This document shows, piece after piece, positions 12,192-47,651 of a stretch of 64,000 nt of DNA. The number at the start of each line of letters is the position of its first letter. Within the stretch, counting starts at the first letter, position 1. Where the stretch lies: the IMG/VR virus record IMGVR_UViG_3300045988_134731, positions 64,001-128,000 of that record, one strand, 5' to 3'. A program made the translations under genes and the position numbers. The stretch is from a virus. A model generated the notes under the pieces. It made no database searches. It saw only the letters and a program-made list of their open reading frames with translations, and had not been told where the DNA came from.

Positions 12192-13064
12192 TTAATTTTC
12201 TTCTATATCTATTCCAGTTATTGTTTTAAATATATCTTTATCAAAGTTAGGTAATGAAACAAATGTCAATCTTTCTTTATCGTCTATACGATTCCACATA
12301 TTTCTCCATGCTTCTGTATATCTTAATTCTTTTAAATAACCTCCAGTAGCTTCATAATTGGGATGTTTTTCTTTTTCTTCATCTGTCATATTGTATTCAT
12401 TAACCCATAGAGTTAATTTAAAATAATTATCTATTATTTTAAATGCATGACTATTCTTCCATATGTCTAATGTCCAATCACTTTCTTTATTAAATAGTTT
12501 AATCGTTTCATGTTTATCATTATCGTCAGTGCAAAAGCATCCTAATTTTTTATTGCCTAAATTACAGTCTCCAATGTTATAATTACCTTTATTATAATTA
12601 CCACTATTGCAATGACCAGAATTATAATTACCACTATTCCAATTTCCAGTATTCCAATCTCCAGTATTCCAATCTCCAGTATTATAATCTCCAGTATTAT
12701 AATCTCCAGTATTAGAATTTCCAGTATTATAACTACCTGTGTTTTTAATACCTGTGTTACCTTCACCAGTATTAACCATATCTAATACTTCATGCCAGTT
12801 TAATTCTCTTATTATTTTTATTTCATTTGTTACACATTTATTATTTGAATAATTACTTTCTATAACTTCACCAGTAGCTTCTATTATAGCTACTTTGTTT
12901 TCTGGGTCAAAAGTGTAATAATTAAAACAATCAACTAGCTTTTTACAAAAATGAAATCCTGTTTCACATATACTTATTTCTCCTTCATATTTATATGTTT
13001 CTCCTACTTTATATTGAAAACCTCTGCAAGTCCAATCTGAATTAAATACTTTATATCCTTTCAT
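12192..13064 (-). CDS. repeat protein with about 10 tandem N-[TS]-G-x-[YW] pentapeptides
   Basis: NTGDYNTGDYNTGDWNTGDWNTGNWNSGNYNSGHC... is encoded by 15-bp tandem repeats at about 12560-12770. The N-terminal domain carries CETGFHFC. Confidence 0.7.
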   Translation of the reverse strand: MKGYKVFNSDWTCRGFQYKVGETYKYEGEISICETGFHFCKKLVDCFNYYTFDPENKVAIIEATGEVIESNYSNNKCVTNEIKIIRELNWHEVLDMVNTGEGNTGIKNTGSYNTGNSNTGDYNTGDYNTGDWNTGDWNTGNWNSGNYNSGHCNSGNYNKGNYNIGDCNLGNKKLGCFCTDDNDKHETIKLFNKESDWTLDIWKNSHAFKIIDNYFKLTLWVNEYNMTDEEKEKHPNYEATGGYLKELRYTEAWRNMWNRIDDKERLTFVSLPNFDKDIFKTITGIDIEEN

Positions 13065-13525: not shown

Positions 13526-14440
13526 CTACTTATATAATTTATTAGCTATATTTAATAAACCTTGTGCTTGTAAAGTTATGTCCTCAGATGATATTGTTTG
13601 TTGATATATCTTTTTCATTGTAGGTGATATAATTTTAGCTCCACCACCAATAATGAGAATATTTGAATTCTTGATGTTATTTGTTTGCCCTTTTATTTCA
13701 TTTACTAAATTAACTATAAATTTCTTAACTAACTCTTCTTTGTATTTGAAATCACCTACTAATAAAGACTCTTCATTATCAAATATTCTTTTTGTTTGTT
13801 CTAATGATAATGATAAATCATATGTTAGGTTAAGATATTCTCTACAAGAATTGTATAAATTAAACAATCCTAATCTTATACTAAATCCATCTTTTAATTG
13901 CATTTTATTATCGTAGACTGTAATATCACACGTATTCCCACCTATATCCACAACCATCGTATCTACATTTTTATTTAATTTATTCATTATACCTTGTATA
14001 GATTTGATTGAATAAGACTCTGGAAGTATTGTAACATTCTCAATTACTATACTTCTTTTAATCCCATTTATAATTATAGTCTTTTTATTATTCTTTTTAA
14101 TATAATTTTCCATTTCATCTTTCTTTTTATATTGATTAACAGGACAACAAGTTACTAAATTGATATTGTTTTCCGTATCTTTTGTAGCATTTGCTATACA
14201 ATAATAAAGTAATATTAAATAATTGTCTTTTTTATATTTTAAAAGTTCATTTTCATACTTTCCTTCACCAATTAAATAACCCTCATCATCTATAGTGAAT
14301 TTTTGATTTTGTGAAAAGTCATCTAATCCCTTTTCACATTTTTTAATTCTCGATTCACAAATACAACTCCCATTATTAGATATAGCTATTGACGTTAAAT
14401 TACCAATGTCTACTCCTATATTGATAATATTTTTACTCAT
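13526..14440 (-). CDS. parM: ParM/Alp-family actin-like segregation ATPase (start trimmed to ATG at 14440)
   Basis: Actin-fold phosphate and adenosine motifs are present: IGVDIGNLTS, VVDIGGNTCD, LIIGGGAKI. The GGGGAGG RBS precedes MSKNIINIG. Confidence 0.7.
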   Translation of the reverse strand: MSKNIINIGVDIGNLTSIAISNNGSCICESRIKKCEKGLDDFSQNQKFTIDDEGYLIGEGKYENELLKYKKDNYLILLYYCIANATKDTENNINLVTCCPVNQYKKKDEMENYIKKNNKKTIIINGIKRSIVIENVTILPESYSIKSIQGIMNKLNKNVDTMVVDIGGNTCDITVYDNKMQLKDGFSIRLGLFNLYNSCREYLNLTYDLSLSLEQTKRIFDNEESLLVGDFKYKEELVKKFIVNLVNEIKGQTNNIKNSNILIIGGGAKIISPTMKKIYQQTISSEDITLQAQGLLNIANKLYK

Positions 14441-14838
14441 AATATCATCCTCCCCAAAATATTGATTTATTAATTCCGCTACCCTCATGGTAGTATGATA
14501 AAAAATACGATATAAATTGATAATGATTTTCAACTGTTACATTACAAATTTTACACCGTATTTCACCTCCTTTACTATAATATATGTTTATTTACAAAAA
14601 TGTTGACTACTATATACATAAATTTTGTAAAAATATTTATTATAGCATCTCCTAATTCTCCTTCGGAGGTATCAAATGAGCTAATATATGCCTTTCTAAG
14701 AAGTTTGAGTAGTCTTATTGAATAAGAGAGGATGTATAAAATTAAATCTTCTTAAAATTGAAAAGGCAAATTTTACCATATAGGGTCGAGTTTTTCCGTT
14801 TTCATCATACTTAGATTCCACTCAACCCCATATTATTA

Positions 14839-15313: not shown

Positions 15314-15354
15314 CTAAGCGCAGAAAAAGGTTTACTAAGCGCAGAAAAAGGTTT
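15314..15354. repeat. perfect 20-bp direct repeat with 21-bp period (CTAAGCGCAGAAAAAGGTTT x2)
   Basis: Copies at 15314-15333 and 15335-15354, between two genes. It is unusually GC-rich for this DNA. Confidence 0.8.
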
Positions 15355-18998: not shown

Positions 18999-19700
18999 TT
19001 AATAATTTATTGCATTTTCTTTATTTATAAAGAAATGTATTCCAGTACTACATTCATTCCATCTATTATTATCAAAATTATCCACATGTACTATTTCTCC
19101 AACTCTATATATAAAATTACTATCATGGTTACTATTTATCTTAGTTATTTTCTCTTCTGTTTCAATATTTTCTATATCTAATACTTTAGCTTTGTTACAT
19201 CTACATTTTGAAGTAGTTGCACTACTTCTTTTAGCATCTTCTAATATCAATAACTTAACTATACATCCATTAGCTTTCTTATATCCTATAAAACTCCCTT
19301 CTTCTGGACAAGCTAAATTATAACCAATAGTATGAATATTTGTTTTTATATCTTTTAAATTAGCATTACTTAAATCAGCATTGCTTAAATTAGCATTACT
19401 TAAATTACTATTACTTAAATTAGAATAACTTAAATCAGCATGACTTAAATTGGTATATCTTAAATCAGTATATCTTAAATCTACACATCTTAAATTGGTA
19501 TATCTTAAATCAGTATTGCTTAAATCAGTATTGCTTAAATTAGCATATTTTAAATCAGCATATTTTAAATTAACATATTCTAAATCAGCATTTTCTAAAT
19601 TGGCACATCTTAAATTAGCACGTTTTCCTCCTTTTCCTTTTACCCACAATTCATGCTCCTTTAATATTTTATTTAATTCCTCTTGATTTATATTTCTCAT
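18999..19700 (-). CDS. pentapeptide-repeat protein
   Basis: About 18 consecutive A(D/N)LxX repeats (ANLRCANLENADLEYVNLKYADL...). The C-terminal domain ends CSTGIHFF. Confidence 0.8.
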   Translation of the reverse strand: MRNINQEELNKILKEHELWVKGKGGKRANLRCANLENADLEYVNLKYADLKYANLSNTDLSNTDLRYTNLRCVDLRYTDLRYTNLSHADLSYSNLSNSNLSNANLSNADLSNANLKDIKTNIHTIGYNLACPEEGSFIGYKKANGCIVKLLILEDAKRSSATTSKCRCNKAKVLDIENIETEEKITKINSNHDSNFIYRVGEIVHVDNFDNNRWNECSTGIHFFINKENAINY

Positions 19701-34117: not shown

Positions 34118-34954
34118 TTATTTGTAGTTAGTAATTAAAACTTCTATGCTCTTATATCCATTATCTTTTTTATGGTAATTACAATTTGAATAATCATAAT
34201 CTAAGTAGTTTACATTATAATTTTTGCTCCAGTTTATTAATATTTCGTTTTTACTTCCATTATGTTCTAATACATTAGATATTGCAAATTTTATACCTTT
34301 TTCATTTAATCTGTCACATAATGATAATAATTCTTTTTCAGTTTCTTCATTCCAACCTGTATTGTAAGTAGCTTCTGTTACTAAGTATGGTGGGTCTAAA
34401 TATACAAAGTCATTTTCTCCTAATTTGTTAATATCTAAAGATATAAAATTTTTATTTGTAAATTCTATATCTTTTTTCTGAATTGCATTTGAAAAATCTT
34501 TAAATTTTTGTTTTAAACTTGGATTAAAATTTCTTTTCCCAAAAGGCATATTAAATTTTCCTTTCTTATTAAATCTTACTTGATTATTAAAAGAATGGGC
34601 TAATAAAGTATAAAGTACATACCATTCTTTATTACCATCATTGTAAGCTTTTCTTAATTCTAAATAACCTTCTTTGTTTTCTTTACTTAAATCATATTCG
34701 TTAATTATTTTTTCTATCATTTCGATAGCTTTCTCTGTATTATTATTTTGTATTCCTTTATATGTATTTATTACTTGAGTGCATAAATCATTGGCTATTA
34801 TTTTATTAGCATTAACATTCACTGCTACATTACAACCACCTGTAAATAAATCTACAAAAGTGTTTATATTTTTTGGAAATAGTGGTAATATTTGATTTAA
34901 TAATTTCCCTTTTCCACCTGTGTAATTAAGAGGGCTTTTAATATATTTTTCCAT
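34118..34954 (-). CDS. Dam-type (D12 class) N6-adenine DNA methyltransferase
   Basis: PLNYTGGKGKLL near the N-terminus and VYLDPPY motif IV. Confidence 0.8.
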   Translation of the reverse strand: MEKYIKSPLNYTGGKGKLLNQILPLFPKNINTFVDLFTGGCNVAVNVNANKIIANDLCTQVINTYKGIQNNNTEKAIEMIEKIINEYDLSKENKEGYLELRKAYNDGNKEWYVLYTLLAHSFNNQVRFNKKGKFNMPFGKRNFNPSLKQKFKDFSNAIQKKDIEFTNKNFISLDINKLGENDFVYLDPPYLVTEATYNTGWNEETEKELLSLCDRLNEKGIKFAISNVLEHNGSKNEILINWSKNYNVNYLDYDYSNCNYHKKDNGYKSIEVLITNYK

Positions 34955-40035: not shown

Positions 40036-40479
40036 CTAGAACACAATTTCTAAGTCCTTGTTATATCTTTTCATATTTAAACTTGCATGAGTGTCGTCAA
40101 CGCTATTATAGTACACTGTAATAACTTGACTTGTTTTTGGTTCAACAACGACCTTCATAACACAGTCTGTTATTTTTCCGTCGGTATCTACTGGGAATGT
40201 ACTCCAACTTTCTATTAATACTCTTCCATTATTTCTTGTTCTGTTATATTCTATTATATCAAATTCACCATGTTTTAGCATGTCGCATATTGTTTTCATG
40301 CTATAGTTGACAGTTGATTTTTTTCTTAAATGATAACTAGCGTATATACGTTGATGTAGCATGTTGTTTATTGCGATTATACATCTTTGATAATCGTCGC
40401 CTTTGAACTGTTTTACATATTTCTTTTCTTGTCCTTCTGTTCTTCTTATTGTTCCTTTTTTTATTTCTCCCTTTAACAT
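40036..40479 (-). CDS. hypothetical protein
   Basis: ORF with a GGGGAAAA RBS. Confidence 0.6.
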   Translation of the reverse strand: MLKGEIKKGTIRRTEGQEKKYVKQFKGDDYQRCIIAINNMLHQRIYASYHLRKKSTVNYSMKTICDMLKHGEFDIIEYNRTRNNGRVLIESWSTFPVDTDGKITDCVMKVVVEPKTSQVITVYYNSVDDTHASLNMKRYNKDLEIVF

Positions 40480-41397: not shown

Positions 41398-41439
41398 TTT
41401 TACTCCTCCTAATTTATTAATTATTTTTAGCTAATGAGT

Positions 41440-41700
41440 AGCTAATCCCGTAAATTATATTTTTATTACTTAATGAACGATTGGGCGTTCTCCCTTGTCT
41501 AATACTTATATTATAATGATAGTACGAATTATGCTTATTTGTCAAATACTTTTTTTAAAATTTTATTAATTATTTTTGTTGCTTGATGGTTAATTGGGTA
41601 ACCTCCCTTGTCTAATACTTATACTTTTTATTATTTTGTTTTATCTTAATTATATGATAGTACGACTAGTATACTTTTGTCAAACATTTTTTTTATTTTT
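41440..41700 (-). promoter_or_regulatory. tandemly duplicated leftward promoter unit (~115 bp x2)
   Basis: Two copies of ...GGGnnnCTCCCTTGTCTAATACTTATA...ATGATAGTACGA...TTTGTCAAA (TTGACA -35 on the minus strand), at about 41478-41550 and 41594-41690. Confidence 0.5.
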
Positions 41701-42553
41701 TTAAATTTATTTTTCCCTAAAAAAGTATATAGATAGAAGTTGATAAGTAAAAACGCTACAAGTTAGTGATATCAACTGTTTAAGCTATATTTTAGATATC
41801 TACAATAAAAATAAAAGTTTATATATAAATAAATTTTTATAGCTAAATACTTTAATTTTTTAAGTAAAAGATAGACTCCACGGTCAAATAGTAAAGTGTT
41901 CGACAAGTTTTACTTTAAAAATTGATAGTAAAAAATATGGTCACTTTATTTATTTAAGTTTAACCCTTAATAAATTAATTCTTTATATATAAATAAAGTA
42001 AAGCATAATTGAATACTTATACATAAAAATAAATTTATATAGATAAGTTATTGGTCGAATAGTTGAATAAAATAAAGTATATTATGTCGAATACTTTACT
42101 TATTGATAGTAGAAAATAGGGTCACAAATTTTATTAAAGTGGATAGTACAATTTACTTTATTTTAGTAAAGCTATAAAAAAGTATTTTATCGTACAAAAT
42201 TATTTTTATGAAGCGTTCCATTTTAAAATTGATTTTAAAGTTTAATAAATAAAGTTGGTATTAATTATTAAGTTTAACTTAATTAAATAAAGCAGAATGA
42301 TAATATCTCCTTTAAAATATTAAGGTAAATCAAGGATTAGCTTTATTTAATTAGGGAAAATATAAAGATTGTTTTATATTATAAAGTTATTATAAAATAC
42401 TGTAATCGTTGATATTACTAGCTTTAGAGTAATTTGACAAATATATACATGCTTTATATAGTAAAGAGAACAAAAGAGAATAGCTTAATTAGTTAATATA
42501 AATTAACATTATGCTTTATTATCTTAATTATCATAGGTATATTTATTAACTAT

Positions 42554-42623
42554 CTAGTATTATCAACGGTTGTAAGCTTTAGGAAAATGCAAAGGAAAAC
42601 AGTGAAACCGTTGATAATACTAG
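42554..42623. repeat. 16-bp perfect inverted repeat CTAGTATTATCAACGG / CCGTTGATAATACTAG with a 38-bp spacer
   Basis: Arms at 42554-42569 and 42608-42623. Related direct copies of CGTTGATATTACTAG lie at 42407-42421 and 42943-42957. Confidence 0.8.
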
Positions 42624-42896
42624 GATTGAATACCATACATAGGTATACACAAATAGAAGAAAACAGAAGAATGTAGCAATTGCAACTGTTTCACGCTTTA
42701 CAATATACCCACTATAGGTATAGGATGCAGTTATTGCAACGGTTGTATAGTATTGGGTAATATAGGTAAACTGTGAAACAATTATAGGTAAACACTTTAG
42801 GAAAATAAAGGAAAATAGATAAATCACTTTAGATTATTAGGAGAAATTGAATAAATGGTAAAAAATGTAAAATGGAAAAATTAGAAAAATTTTACT

Positions 42897-43112
42897 TGTG
42901 GATAACTTAGATTAAGAAAAAAAGTGTATAAGTGTATGAAAGCGTTGATATTACTAGATTATATAGACTTATAGGTTGTTAGCTTGAGATGTAGCTGGAA
43001 ATGTAATTGTAAGTATTAGTAAGACTTGCTTTCATATATATTTATACATATTAACAACTTGTGGATAACTAGCAAAATACTTGTGGATAACTAGGGAATA
43101 TAGTGTTGATAA
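42897..43112 (+). promoter_or_regulatory. cluster of three perfect DnaA boxes (TGTGGATAA, complement of TTATCCACA) plus one 1-mismatch box
   Basis: Perfect boxes at 42897-42905, 43060-43068 and 43082-43090, each within ACTTGTGGATAACT. TGTTGATAA at 43104-43112 has one mismatch. All share one orientation. Confidence 0.65.
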
Positions 43113-43672
43113 GCACGTCACCTGGACAAGTCAACCACTTTAAAAAATTAAGAATGTACGATTAATTAATACTTAATCACACTTTTTGGAGAAGGAATTT
43201 TTTTTCAATAGGCAAGAAATGTTGATATTCCAACATCTAGGGGGTGGTATCATATTCGGAGGGGCTTGACAAAAATTTTATTCTGTGTAGTAGTTTACCA
43301 ACTACATGCCATAAAAAATACCGAATTACATTTTTAACCATTTCTATAAACTCCTATCTTCATAACATTAACATATTTACAAATTAAGAATACTAGGAAA
43401 TTAATGCGTATTTATTATACTTTATTTTTATCTAATTTAAAGTATTAAAATTAGATATTACCGTATTGTACTTATTCTCGGGAAATGATATTATAAATAT
43501 GTTATTTTACGTTTATAAATTAATACTTGATTTAATGGGAATTTAATAGTATATTTAATATATTGGAAATAAATGGGAAAATATGGGTTTAATCAGATAT
43601 AATACACCGCCACTACGTATTAATTTATCTATATAAACCCATTAGTTTTACCGTATCAAACCATTGAAATAC

Positions 43673-43716
43673 CAAATAAAAAGGTGTGTAGTACAAGCAA
43701 TAGTCGTACCACACAC
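43673..43716 (-). terminator. rho-independent terminator of 43728..44321
   Basis: GTGTGTaGTAC / GTACcACACAC stem followed by TTTTTATTT on the minus strand. Confidence 0.6.
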
Positions 43717-43727
43717 TCAATTTTACA

Positions 43728-44321
43728 TTATAATATACACTTGTCTAAACACTCTAAGTTACAATTTACACACATAGTTTTAAGAATTTTATTCCTAATC
43801 TTGCCCTGTAAGTCGCTTATAATAAGTAGAGAAGGAAGAGTCTGCATACCTTGTTCAATCACATATTCTTTAATAGGATTAATATCTGTGTATTTATCTA
43901 TACAATCTGATAATCTACCATGCAATTGAACTTCTATTAATAAACCTTTCCTTATTATAGTATTGTCTTTTTTGTATCTAATTATAATATAACCATCTGC
44001 TATAACATTACCCAATTGAACATTTCTATCTACGTATATTATTTCCACGCCTAGTAATAATAAATTATATACTAATTCAGTTATATACATATCATGCCTA
44101 AGTAATCTTTCATTAGGTTTATTTTCAATATAATAAATATATTCTCTATTATATATTCCACTTCTAAAGCGTTTTAATTGCTTATATTCTACTAATTTAT
44201 TAGCTCTTCTATCCCAAGTGGTATTAGTTAATCCTGCAAAGAATAAATTTCTTATATGTTCTGTTCTACACATAGTAACTAGATTAATAAAGTTTAATAC
44301 TTGGATATCTCTTTCAGTCAT
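43728..44321 (-). CDS. replication-relaxation (Replic_Relax) family protein
   Basis: N-terminal wHTH-like MTERDIQVLNFINLV..CRTEHIRNLFF and the RLLRHDMYITELVYNLL block resemble this family (from memory). It lies next to an FtsK-like gene. Confidence 0.45.
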   Translation of the reverse strand: MTERDIQVLNFINLVTMCRTEHIRNLFFAGLTNTTWDRRANKLVEYKQLKRFRSGIYNREYIYYIENKPNERLLRHDMYITELVYNLLLLGVEIIYVDRNVQLGNVIADGYIIIRYKKDNTIIRKGLLIEVQLHGRLSDCIDKYTDINPIKEYVIEQGMQTLPSLLIISDLQGKIRNKILKTMCVNCNLECLDKCIL

Positions 44322-44439: not shown

Positions 44440-45570
44440 ATGAGTAATGTGATAGAACCTTTAACAAATACTATTTGGGATACAATAACATTATTATGTA
44501 AATCAGCTTTAGATGTATTTAATATTAAACATATTGATTTTACTGATTTCTTTAATAATATCAATATGAAGAATGCTTCTGGAGATATACCTAAGTTAAG
44601 AAATAAATGGGAAGACGAAAACTATAAAATATATGAGTTTATAATACCTACAGGAATGACTATAGATGATTTTAATAATAATAAGAATAAGTTTTGTCAT
44701 TTATTAAATAAAGAAAAAGAAGATGTTAGTTTTAAAAAGAATGGATATTATATTCAATTAAGAATTAAAAAAGAAGAGATAGTATGTGCTGACTTTGATT
44801 TAGAAAAACATAAAGCTAAAGGATACAAAATCCCTATAGGAATCAATTTAGAAGATTGTAGCATTAGATATATTGACTTTAGCGAACCTTCTAATGCACA
44901 TATGTATTTAGCAGGAGCTACTAGATGTGGTAAATCTAATTGTTTAAGAGTTATTATATCTCAATTAGTAATGAAAAGAAAATGTGACGTTGTGTTAGAT
45001 TTAATCAATGAAAAGAGAGTAGATTTATTTGAATTTAGAAACTGTAAAAATGTAATTCATTATACGGAAAATAGAGATGAAGCTGAAGATATATTATTTG
45101 ATGCTATACAAGATATAGATAAAAGATATGAACTGTTTACTTATAGAAATTGCACTGATATATGGCAATATAGGAAGTTTAAAAAAATGCCTATTAGATT
45201 TATAGTGATAGAAGAGTTATCTTCTTATATGAAGAATAAGGATTTTCATAATATGTTAGCTTTAATAGCTAGTAGAGGTGCAGGAGCAGGGGTGTTTCTA
45301 ATACTAACTACCCAATTACCTTCTAAAGATATATTACCTAATATAACTAAACAGAATATAAATATCGTTATAGGTGGTAAATGTAAAGATGAAATTAGGT
45401 CTAATATGATAATTAACTATGGATATTTACATTTATTAAGAGGAGCTGGAAATATGAGAGTGTTTGATTGTGAAGAATATGGGACAGAAATACAGACATT
45501 TTATATTGATAGAGAAACTGTATTAAAAATAAGTGAAAAATATAGTAAAAAGAAAGAGGAGGTAAAATAA
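44440..45570 (+). CDS. FtsK/SpoIIIE/TcpA-like DNA translocase ATPase
   Basis: LAGATRCGKSN (Walker A), RFIVIEELSS (Walker B) and GVFLILTTQLPSKDIL (FtsK-type QxP block). Confidence 0.7.
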   Translation: MSNVIEPLTNTIWDTITLLCKSALDVFNIKHIDFTDFFNNINMKNASGDIPKLRNKWEDENYKIYEFIIPTGMTIDDFNNNKNKFCHLLNKEKEDVSFKKNGYYIQLRIKKEEIVCADFDLEKHKAKGYKIPIGINLEDCSIRYIDFSEPSNAHMYLAGATRCGKSNCLRVIISQLVMKRKCDVVLDLINEKRVDLFEFRNCKNVIHYTENRDEAEDILFDAIQDIDKRYELFTYRNCTDIWQYRKFKKMPIRFIVIEELSSYMKNKDFHNMLALIASRGAGAGVFLILTTQLPSKDILPNITKQNINIVIGGKCKDEIRSNMIINYGYLHLLRGAGNMRVFDCEEYGTEIQTFYIDRETVLKISEKYSKKKEEVK

Positions 45571-46192: not shown

Positions 46193-47149
46193 TTAAAAAA
46201 TACTTGTCCTTATAAATAAGTCAGTATAATACTTAATTTTATTATTTAACACAGCTTTAAAGTAAGGATATACATTATAATCTATTTTATCTACATTAAA
46301 TTTAGATAATGTTGTATTGACTGATTCAATAAAAGACTGTTTCATATCTTCATACGTGAAATCTATTAACTCAAAATCTTTTTGAAGAGACGACATACAA
46401 TTATTTGATATTAAACTCTTATTAGGAATGTATGACAATGGTGAAATTTGTTCAGTTTGTTTCTTTTTAAAATATACTCTTTTATCTAAATCTTTTACAT
46501 GAAATGTTATAGATTTTACACTTCGTCCTTTTTTATTTTCAGTATATGATAATTCAAACATTCCAGTATTATTTAATTCCTTTTTAGCTCGTTGAAGAAC
46601 ATTTCTTTTAAAATCAGCATACAAATTATATTTGTTGTTTAACATTAATAAATCTTTTAATTCGTCTAGTTCATATGTTATATTTTCTTTTGTATTACTC
46701 CATAATCTAAGAAGGTCATATAATCTTTGGCTATATATTGATTTTAAAGTTAAAAATATTTTCATATTAATAGGTGTATAAGCTTTGTAATTCATAAGAA
46801 GATGATAAACTTTATCAATGACAACTATTTTAAATAAATCTTCTTTTTTATTATATTCATACCCAGCTATAATACTATATTTACAGCTCCACTCACCATC
46901 TTCTCTAAAGTATATTTTTTCATCTAGCATATTATCTAATACTTTTTTAATACCTGGAACTGTTTTCTGTGTTTTATTTGAAATAAGATTTTGAAATTCT
47001 TGTTTGCTTATATAACAATATGCATTACCAGACTTAGCCTTCTGAAGTTTATACAATATGAAAATAAATATATTATTATGCATGAGAGATATGTTATATC
47101 TAGCACTAACTATTGTGTTATTTTTCATAAGTATTTGATTTTTACTCAT
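46193..47149 (-). CDS. Rep_3 (RepB-type) plasmid replication initiator
   Basis: N-terminus NNTIVSARYNISLMHNNIFIFILYKLQ is the typical Rep_3 opening. About 318 aa, with iterons directly upstream. Confidence 0.65.
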   Translation of the reverse strand: MSKNQILMKNNTIVSARYNISLMHNNIFIFILYKLQKAKSGNAYCYISKQEFQNLISNKTQKTVPGIKKVLDNMLDEKIYFREDGEWSCKYSIIAGYEYNKKEDLFKIVVIDKVYHLLMNYKAYTPINMKIFLTLKSIYSQRLYDLLRLWSNTKENITYELDELKDLLMLNNKYNLYADFKRNVLQRAKKELNNTGMFELSYTENKKGRSVKSITFHVKDLDKRVYFKKKQTEQISPLSYIPNKSLISNNCMSSLQKDFELIDFTYEDMKQSFIESVNTTLSKFNVDKIDYNVYPYFKAVLNNKIKYYTDLFIRTSIF

Positions 47150-47186
47150 ATTAAAACCTCCTTAATTTCTCATAGTTATATTATAA

Positions 47187-47356
47187 CCCTTAATATCTCA
47201 TATTAATAGTCCCTTATTTTAACATATTTAAATTATTATGAGTAATTAAGGAAATAAAAATGCCCTTAAAAACACATATTTATAAACGAAATGATACTTA
47301 ATTTAACATATATATCCCTTAAAAACACATATTAAAACCTTTAAAACTCATATATA
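47187..47356. repeat. five 19-bp iterons (CCCTTAwwwwmmCATATww)
   Basis: Copies start at 47187, 47211, 47263, 47316 and 47338, all in one orientation, directly upstream of the rep start. Confidence 0.7.
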
Positions 47357-47448
47357 ATATGATGAATACAAGGAATATCAATAGAAGTAGCTTTCTTAAA
47401 TACTATTAAATACTAAATTAAATACTATATATATTAAATAATATAATT

Positions 47449-47480
47449 CATAGGTAATTTTTCATTATTAGTTGTTAATT
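47449..47480 (+). promoter_or_regulatory. class-2 promoter-like element (CATAGGTAAT-N14-TGTTAATT)
   Basis: Consensus geometry. It lies in tandem with the next copy. Confidence 0.4.
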
Positions 47481-47584
47481 ATATAAATATAATTATAAAA
47501 TAATACATATATTCGGAGTGTTTTTGTAATGGTATTAAAGAAGCTTAATAAAAAATCTTAAAGGACAAACATATTTTTGTAATT

Positions 47585-47616
47585 CATAGGTAATTTTTTA
47601 TATAGTTATGTTAATA
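47585..47616 (+). promoter_or_regulatory. class-2 promoter-like element (CATAGGTAAT-N15-TGTTAATA)
   Basis: Lies upstream of the AAAAGGAG RBS of 47652. Confidence 0.5.
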
Positions 47617-47651
47617 CATAAATAAGAAATAAATAAAAAGGAGTTGATATT

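Follow-up and report, generated by a model that had tools for sequence, protein, structure and literature searches.

The question raised by this locus is whether a gene-free gap carrying three perfect DnaA boxes is the origin from which a virus replicates. The gap lies within a 64,000-nucleotide stretch of DNA (positions 64,001 to 128,000 of IMG/VR record IMGVR_UViG_3300045988_134731), referred to below as the window. Judged by its genes and relatives, the source element is a large gut phage-plasmid of low-GC Firmicutes, roughly 135 kb in length and circular in the best explanation, an assignment made because the gene content, the phiCD211-like portal and gene order, the relatives of its Rep protein, its IMG/VR relatives and a match to a metagenome-assembled genome (MAG) all indicate it. 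The answer tentatively preferred here is that the gap is a multi-protein control or accessory origin-type region that would recruit the host DnaA protein in this clade, and that the primary plasmid origin is probably the iteron array of a Rep_3 gene at 47.16-47.5 kb.

41398..43727, unstranded: gene-free gap separating the leftward arm from the module of the 197-amino-acid (197-aa), FtsK-like and Rep_3 genes

The preliminary description of this DNA had found no credible gene in the gap, and this was borne out, as the longest open reading frame (ORF) in 41398-43727 is an 82-aa low-complexity frame. Gene callers likewise left empty the homologous gap of 2.6-2.7 kb in a sister clade, and the size and position of the gap are conserved in every lineage sampled. 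The gap coincides with the switch of gene orientation in the window, in which all genes within 1-41397 lie on the minus strand and the majority further right on the plus strand. Comparison of the gap DNA with phage and plasmid collections gave zero similarity matches. The gap is a control region and not a missed gene.

42897..42905, minus strand: DnaA box A (TTATCCACA)
43057..43112, minus strand: DnaA box array B (perfect at 43060 and 43082, one mismatch at 43104)

All three perfect DnaA boxes reported earlier (42897, 43060 and 43082) were confirmed, each on the minus strand, as was the single-mismatch box at 43104. The sequence TTATCCACA is the accepted DnaA-box consensus for low-GC Firmicutes, clostridia included (PMC5749712). 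The members of array B are arranged head-to-tail in the same orientation with a period of 22 bp (positions 43057, 43079 and 43101). Across the whole 64-kb window there are five perfect boxes against 0.72 expected, three of them within 194 bp and two further copies in the left arm at 19078 and 37447. In 300 Markov simulations there was never more than one box per 250-bp span, which upheld the statement that the boxes cluster beyond chance.

Comparison with 11 close relatives showed that the box cores at 42897 and 43060 are invariant and that at 43082 nearly so, whereas pairwise diversity reaches 0.2-0.3 in the flanks of the boxes; among 20000 triples of local 9-mers drawn at random, just 3 were equally conserved. 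Box number among these relatives ranges from 2 to 5 with the 22-bp phasing retained, and the third box of array B is perfect in L012/L024. In two relatives, L021 and L023, replacement has affected the DNA between the boxes and on either side of them, and perfect TGTGGATAA cores persist at 22-23-bp spacing (five copies in L021, four in L023). Box A is expanded to three boxes in L021, also at 22-23-bp spacing, and the box A region of L023 holds two perfect boxes and one with a single mismatch. Perfect boxes are almost confined to this cluster in the 10-21-kb loci of close relatives, which amount to about half the window's length and barely cover its left arm. Because the cores are intact, the flanks have diverged and the 22-bp phasing is kept despite varying box number, the DnaA boxes are, as far as can be read from the DNA itself, functional and under selection in the window's clade. 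Since they are genuine, clustered, phased and protected by selection in close relatives, binding of DnaA at these boxes may reasonably be inferred.

46193..47149, minus strand: Rep_3 (WH1-WH2) replication initiator, related to RepE and RepM
47160..47510, unstranded: probable plasmid-type origin (oriV), with iterons and, after them, TTAAATACTAT repeats and a 9% GC tract (47396-47500)

Iterons of the form CCTTAA-N5-CATAT, absent from the preliminary description, are present in 6-7 copies at 47160-47353, where they overlap the ribosome-binding and promoter region of rep. Their consensus has seven matches in the window against 0.71 expected, and iterons of the CCCTTAAAAACACATAT type occur only at 47187-47353, with none in 41.4-43.7 kb. 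The product of rep matches RepE at 1.4e-10. The iterons are conserved in all lineages. They are identical in locus L029, upstream of rep, and in the sister-clade locus L033, the Rep of which is 75% identical, a co-varying version (CCTTAATTACTCATAT) is found upstream of rep. A distance of 3 kb separates the DnaA-box region from the 3′ end of rep, the iterons are found beyond the opposite end of that gene, and no DnaA box, even at one mismatch, was found in 47150-47650. Iterons and an A+T-rich region directly upstream of rep, with no DnaA boxes, are the standard form of a Firmicutes Rep_3 theta replicon. The primary plasmid origin is thus placed, with probability rather than certainty, at this array, which would account for plasmid maintenance without the DnaA-box region.

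43138..43727, unstranded: right-hand block of the gap, inherited with the 197-aa / FtsK / rep module

Loci L029 and L030 are 95.5% identical rightwards from window position 43138, a sharp breakpoint inside the gap, and to the left of ~43138 they share one short alignable stretch only, at 67% identity. Because the identity breaks so sharply, the gap is composed of two independently inherited parts, of which the left (~41.7-43.14 kb) is, by these alignments, an exchangeable cassette of lineage-specific putative binding sites. The right-hand block carries the palindrome CGATTAA-N7-TTAATCA at 43159-43179 (CGATTAA-N7-TTAATCR across lineages), together with conserved sequence that includes GAAATGTTGATATTCCAACATCTAGGGGGTGGTATCATATTCGG (43218-43260) and is G-rich in one segment. 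Aligned between the window, L029 and L033, the cassettes are collinear, share only about 62-64% identity and have a common layout of tandem leftward promoter units, AT-only repeats, TATTCGAC-type motifs and two ATACC-N7-GGTAT palindromes. Each cassette also holds a site family with a lineage-specific core, which is GTTGATAW in the window, TTGAAAAC or TTGAGAAC in L029 and TTGAAAT or TTGCAATT in L033. The concerted change of all motif copies suggests that these cores co-evolve with a phage protein; the 139-, 120- and 147-aa leftward proteins were rejected as the co-varying binder, as they either fail to follow the cassette in its changes or lack a signature of DNA binding. Sister lineages have unrelated sequence with other short repeats in the stretch corresponding to the box cassette. 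Direct replacement of the sister clade's CTTGTATACTAG palindrome by the boxes was rejected, because alignment puts the two at different columns.

41458..41703, minus strand: two tandem promoter-plus-leader units of ~113-138 bp
41800..42400, unstranded: most A+T-rich part of the gap (16-22% GC), with AT-only repeats (ATAAAAATAAATTTATAT-like) and two GGTC...GGTCAC units
42407..42957, unstranded: four CGTTGATAWTACTAG sites, the second and third forming an 18-bp inverted repeat; part of the GTTGATAW family
42434..42462, plus strand: rightward promoter-like site TTGACA-17-TATAGT
42630-42646 and 42705-42721, unstranded: two operator-like ATACC-N7-GGTAT palindromes

The remaining sites of the gap fall into several interleaved families. 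The four copies of CGTTGATAWTACTAG previously listed (42407, 42609 and 42943 on the plus strand, 42554 on the minus strand) compare with 0.01 expected, and the inverted repeat formed by two of them is perfect, as claimed, but 18 bp in length (42554-42571 / 42606-42623) rather than 16. Because its arms vary independently among relatives, with no compensation, the repeat is read as a pair of sites that would be bound separately; a conserved hairpin or cruciform was rejected on this ground and because both strands of the gap fold better than shuffled sequence. GTGAAAC does occur three times (two direct, one inverted). The pair of GGTC...GGTCAC units was also confirmed, at 41883-41944 and 42053-42125; an indel inside the unit distinguishes the copies, which contain TATTCGAC/TTCGACA motifs. 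Two counts were too high for exact matches: TATAGGTA, given as about six copies, has three (42713, 42761 and 42783) and reaches the larger number only as a relaxed core, and ATAAAGC/GCTTTAT, given as about eight, has four, the figure of eight applying to the 6-mer TAAAGC/GCTTTA (41999-42581; ~0.6 expected). The 7-mer ATAGGTA is present in five copies against 0.7 expected. The most enriched short motif, GTTGATAW, of which 8 of the 25 window copies lie in 41739-43228, had been missed, as had the two ATACC-N7-GGTAT palindromes and the tandem promoter-plus-leader units.

Each tandem unit holds a TTGACA-18-TATCAT site (41545-41516 and 41683-41654; 11/12 matches) followed by a conserved AAGTATTAGACAAGGGAG, and these promoter-like sites would drive the leftward arm. 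The units, which precede the first leftward gene, have been kept in both L029 and L033, where the ATACC-N7-GGTAT palindromes have equivalents and the AT-only repeats of 41800-42400 recur. In most relatives the -35 element of the rightward site at 42434-42462 is TCGACA. The genes directly downstream of the tandem units (36-41 kb) are highly variable among relatives.

A recurring intergenic motif was also observed elsewhere in the window, composed of TCATAGGTAATTTTT followed after roughly 8-12 nt by TGTTAATAT and oriented with the downstream genes (5352, 13203 and 27286 on the minus strand; 47450, 47586, 48015 and 50377 on the plus strand). In appearance it is a class of promoter specific to the phage, perhaps one recognised by the phage sigma factor encoded at 51716-52903. 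The ATAGGTA sites of the gap mostly do not have the downstream TGTTAATAT element.

Many metagenome contigs, from many samples, stop inside the gap, typically 0.5-1.5 kb beyond the 197-aa gene (loci L001, L004, L007, L012, L014, L061-L069 and L075). The rep / FtsK / 197-aa block often assembles alone as a 5-6-kb contig, and 7 of 10 checked IMG/VR contigs of 126-140 kb have an end within ~10 kb of the gap. These breaks are likely to result from strain-level mosaicism or from the A+T-rich repeats.

On the reading of the gap as a control or accessory origin-type region, it would be a non-coding hub between the leftward early-arm promoters and the plasmid-maintenance module, and a mosaic of binding sites for several proteins. 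Host DnaA would oligomerise on the two same-orientation, 22-bp-phased box groups, with any unwinding of the DNA and any link to replication presumed from the sites. The accessory role could be that of a second, DnaA-assisted initiation or helicase-loading site, or of an enhancer tying the element's replication and early transcription to the initiation status of the host.

A possible but doubtful alternative, the next in order of likelihood, is that the gap is a transcriptional control region of the immunity type, in which the repeats are operators and promoters and DnaA acts as a transcription factor, or as a roadblock on early or non-coding transcripts, and not in replication. Several of the features above are consistent with it: the operator-like palindromes (ATACC-N7-GGTAT twice, CGATTAA-N7-TTAATCR) are kept across lineages, strong promoter-like sites border the gap and lie within it, ATAGGTA is also the upstream element of the intergenic promoter-like motif found elsewhere in the genome, the motif families change together from one lineage to the next, as happens with operators and their regulators, and the boxes are dispensable in sister lineages. 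However, an operator region of 2.3-2.7 kb would be very large, no helix-turn-helix regulator was detected among the adjacent genes, no convincing promoter overlaps the boxes in all relatives, and origins are the more typical setting for phased same-orientation arrays that vary in copy number. A more specific proposal, which is rather unlikely as it stands, is that in one clade the DnaA boxes arose in the exchangeable cassette and wired a second origin, or early or lysis-lysogeny transcription, to host DnaA, with DnaA availability or replication stress as the signal and independently of the Rep_3 origin.

The main reading drawn from the preliminary description is that the gap is the principal, DnaA-dependent origin of the replicon, for which the boxes near A+T-rich repeats, the switch of gene orientation and the cumulative GC-skew minimum at about 41-42 kb could be cited. 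This is now improbable, and a number of observations weigh against it. The complete iteron origin, with conserved iterons of the Rep_3 gene's own, is located ~4 kb from the DnaA boxes, and the lowest-GC tract nearby (9%, 47.4 kb) adjoins those iterons and not the boxes. On an A+T-rich unwinding element beside the boxes the evidence is mixed: 42800-42899 is 20% GC compared with 25% for the whole element, and the lowest-GC DNA of the gap (16-17%) is found ~500 bp or more from them. No DnaA-trio (a run of at least three NAR triplets) was found within 45 nt 5′ of any box, and no GC cluster flanks any of them. The homologous gap of L029 has no DnaA box despite a Rep that is 96% identical and identical iterons, and that of the roughly 80% identical sister clade has none, even at one mismatch, with the same architecture. 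There is likewise no box in the 82 kb of phiCD211 that were read, and none near rep in two related clostridial Rep_3 replicons (L041 and L042; Paraclostridium and Clostridium). These absences rule out the boxes as a family-wide feature; the boxes as part of the Rep_3 origin were also rejected, given that the iterons lie elsewhere and that L029 combines the same Rep and iterons with a box-free gap.

GC skew, which had been put forward as a check on the origin, does reach its minimum at the gap, yet this is explained by gene orientation. All 64 arm genes together give a skew on the coding strand of +0.33 +/- 0.10; the value is +0.28 for the head-on 197-aa gene and +0.12 for rep. The minimum tracks the coding strand, and because it marks the gene-orientation switch it gives no independent support to an origin and was discarded as uninformative. 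What stands of the DnaA-origin reading is that the boxes are genuine, clustered, phased and conserved; what does not is that the gap is 'the' origin, since there are separate iterons and the boxes are lineage-specific.

It is similarly improbable, and slightly more so, that the gap specifies one or more rightward-transcribed non-coding RNAs with the repeats as RNA modules. The plus strand at 42.4-43.3 kb is purine-rich and coding-strand-like (GC skew +0.32), the promoter-like site at 42434-42462 points in the appropriate direction, and the plus strand of the gap folds better than shuffled controls (z = -3.9), but the opposite strand folds even better (z = -5.0), as would be expected of palindromic DNA. 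The arms of the 18-bp inverted repeat vary with no compensation, the conserved block showed just a single compensatory pair, and a covariance search with Rfam 15 gave no match in the region and one chance-level match (E = 0.56) outside it.

13526-14533: actin-like (ParM-type) partition protein

Two further roles had been suggested for the gap, as a centromere and as a transfer site (clt/oriT-like). A better centromere candidate is provided by a perfect 21-bp tandem repeat (CTAAGCGCAGAAAAAGGTTT(A), two copies) at 15314-15354, followed by 8-bp ATAAATAG-type repeats to 15401, which sits upstream of an operon with a 138-aa gene and the actin-like gene. These repeats are a candidate centromere or operator and are likelier to be the centromere than the gap is. 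As to transfer, L029 and L030 have completely different cassettes, yet their FtsK and 197-aa proteins are 95-98% identical; the repeat-bearing cassette does not co-evolve with the FtsK-like and 197-aa genes because it recombines independently of them. It is therefore very unlikely that the gap serves as a partition centromere, or as a clt/oriT-like site on which the FtsK-like ATPase and the 197-aa protein act, even though short-repeat arrays adjoin the FtsK-like gene and the FtsK / replication-relaxation / RepA trio is a known Bacillus phage-plasmid module (PMC11526630), given that the actin-like partition gene is 27 kb away with its own tandem repeat, that the cassette is exchanged separately, and that FtsK-like genes are common in non-conjugative Bacillus phages.

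43684..43716, minus strand: intrinsic terminator of the 197-aa gene
43728..44321, minus strand: 197-aa protein, phrog_9996
44440..45570, plus strand: FtsK/SpoIIIE-like ATPase
51716-52903: phage sigma factor
within the window: prohead protease, ATP-dependent DNA ligase, portal protein and exonuclease, all recognisable
within the window: Xer-like tyrosine recombinase

By inspection, the 197-aa protein has a winged-helix N-terminus and resembles replication-relaxation proteins; it had zero matches in PDB, Pfam or NCBIfam, and its AlphaFold model (predicted local distance difference test score, pLDDT, of 41) was too poor for use. Its only distant homologue (52% identity; L036 / L037) has another arrangement, in which a 202-aa gene, a 138-167-aa gene and a 442-aa FtsK-like gene follow one another in the same orientation, and because of this different arrangement the 197-aa/FtsK-like pair is suggested to be a mobile module found also outside this phage family. 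Temperate phages and phage-plasmids of Bacillus widely carry FtsK-like genes, non-conjugative phages among them.

The window is 25% GC. Its portal shares ~30% identity with its counterpart in the 130-kb C. difficile phiCD211 / phiCDIF1296T group, the gene order of phiCD211 matches the right arm of the window, and its Rep is ~40% identical to Rep of Paraclostridium and Clostridium plasmids. Fifteen IMG/VR contigs, mostly of 113-140 kb, are its close relatives, and the sole match among GTDB genomes is a human-gut 'uncultured Firmicutes' MAG. Compared with the window, L029 has Rep, FtsK-like and 197-aa proteins that are 96%, 91% and 89% identical, respectively. The abundant sister clade derives from pig and other gut metagenomes, and its 197-aa protein is ~80% identical to that of the window.

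Some further observations concern the element at large. GATC is absent from the 64-kb window (0 against 154 expected) and absent or near-absent in all close relatives and phiCD211 (loci L001-L031, L039 and L040), a pattern suggestive of restriction-site avoidance; 12 GATC sites, all within the gap and left arm, are found in the sister-clade locus L033. A D12-class adenine methyltransferase gene is located on the same element at 34118-34954. The 147-aa leftward protein (40036-40479, minus strand; phrog_1905) is kept across lineages, with 48% identity in L033. Its residues 27-61 form a weak ubiquitin-like segment that matches at 9e-8 solely against polyubiquitin chains and at only about 0.9 against shorter (two-unit) chains. 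In-frame tandem repeats were seen at 19355-19620 (a 15-bp unit repeated ~18 times, inside ORF 18999-19700) and at 12561-12737 (15/30/45-bp period, in a DUF7666 pentapeptide-repeat protein at 12192-13064).

Among known systems, P1 oriR and F oriS (RepE) are iteron origins with DnaA boxes, and the locus resembles them in its WH1-WH2 Rep, iterons upstream of rep, A+T-rich tract and tandem consensus DnaA boxes. It differs in that the boxes are ~4 kb from the iterons with three or more genes between, that no box is within 500 bp of the iterons, and that sister lineages sharing the Rep lack the boxes. Clusters of DnaA boxes outside origins, and promoters regulated by DnaA, are also known, such as the B. 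subtilis DnaA-box clusters and E. coli datA; these share with the gap a small cluster of consensus boxes away from the initiator-bound origin, but they are chromosomal, and no phage-borne equivalent was found in the literature searched. The chromosomal oriC of Firmicutes has bipartite DnaA-box clusters around dnaA, DnaA-trios and an unwinding element. The gap has in common with it the consensus TTATCCACA (PMC5749712), same-orientation arrays and very A+T-rich DNA nearby, and differs in its small number of boxes (3-5), in the absence of dnaA and dnaN and of any DnaA-trio or GC cluster beside a box, and in belonging to a phage. The likeness to Firmicutes Rep_3 theta replicons concerns the 47.16-47.5-kb region and not the DnaA-box gap.

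A module of FtsK/SpoIIIE, replication-relaxation and RepA genes is present in Bacillus phage-plasmids, RBClin15 and pBClin15-like elements (PMC11526630), and the same trio of gene types adjoins the maintenance functions of an extrachromosomal prophage in both cases, the difference being that in the window the 197-aa gene points away from the FtsK-like gene and its product is without a match in Pfam. DnaA is mentioned 0 times in that account (PMC11526630), and the literature searched held no account of the origin of this phage family, nor of DnaA boxes in Firmicutes phage-plasmids. The present practical value of the comparison is annotation, with a likely oriV at 47.16-47.5 kb, a likely centromere at ~15.3 kb and the gap as a control region. 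If DnaA truly acts at the gap, replication of a phage-plasmid common in human and pig guts would receive two inputs, one from its own Rep_3 at the iterons and one from the host initiator at a separate, swappable cassette, and the element would offer a tractable example both of coupling between a temperate element and the host cell cycle and of cis-regulatory cassette exchange between phage lineages. None of the readings would make the locus a new kind of system, as DnaA boxes in plasmid-prophage origins are classical (P1, F); what is unusual is the 4-kb separation of the boxes from the iterons, their restriction to particular lineages and the exchange of the cassette that carries them.

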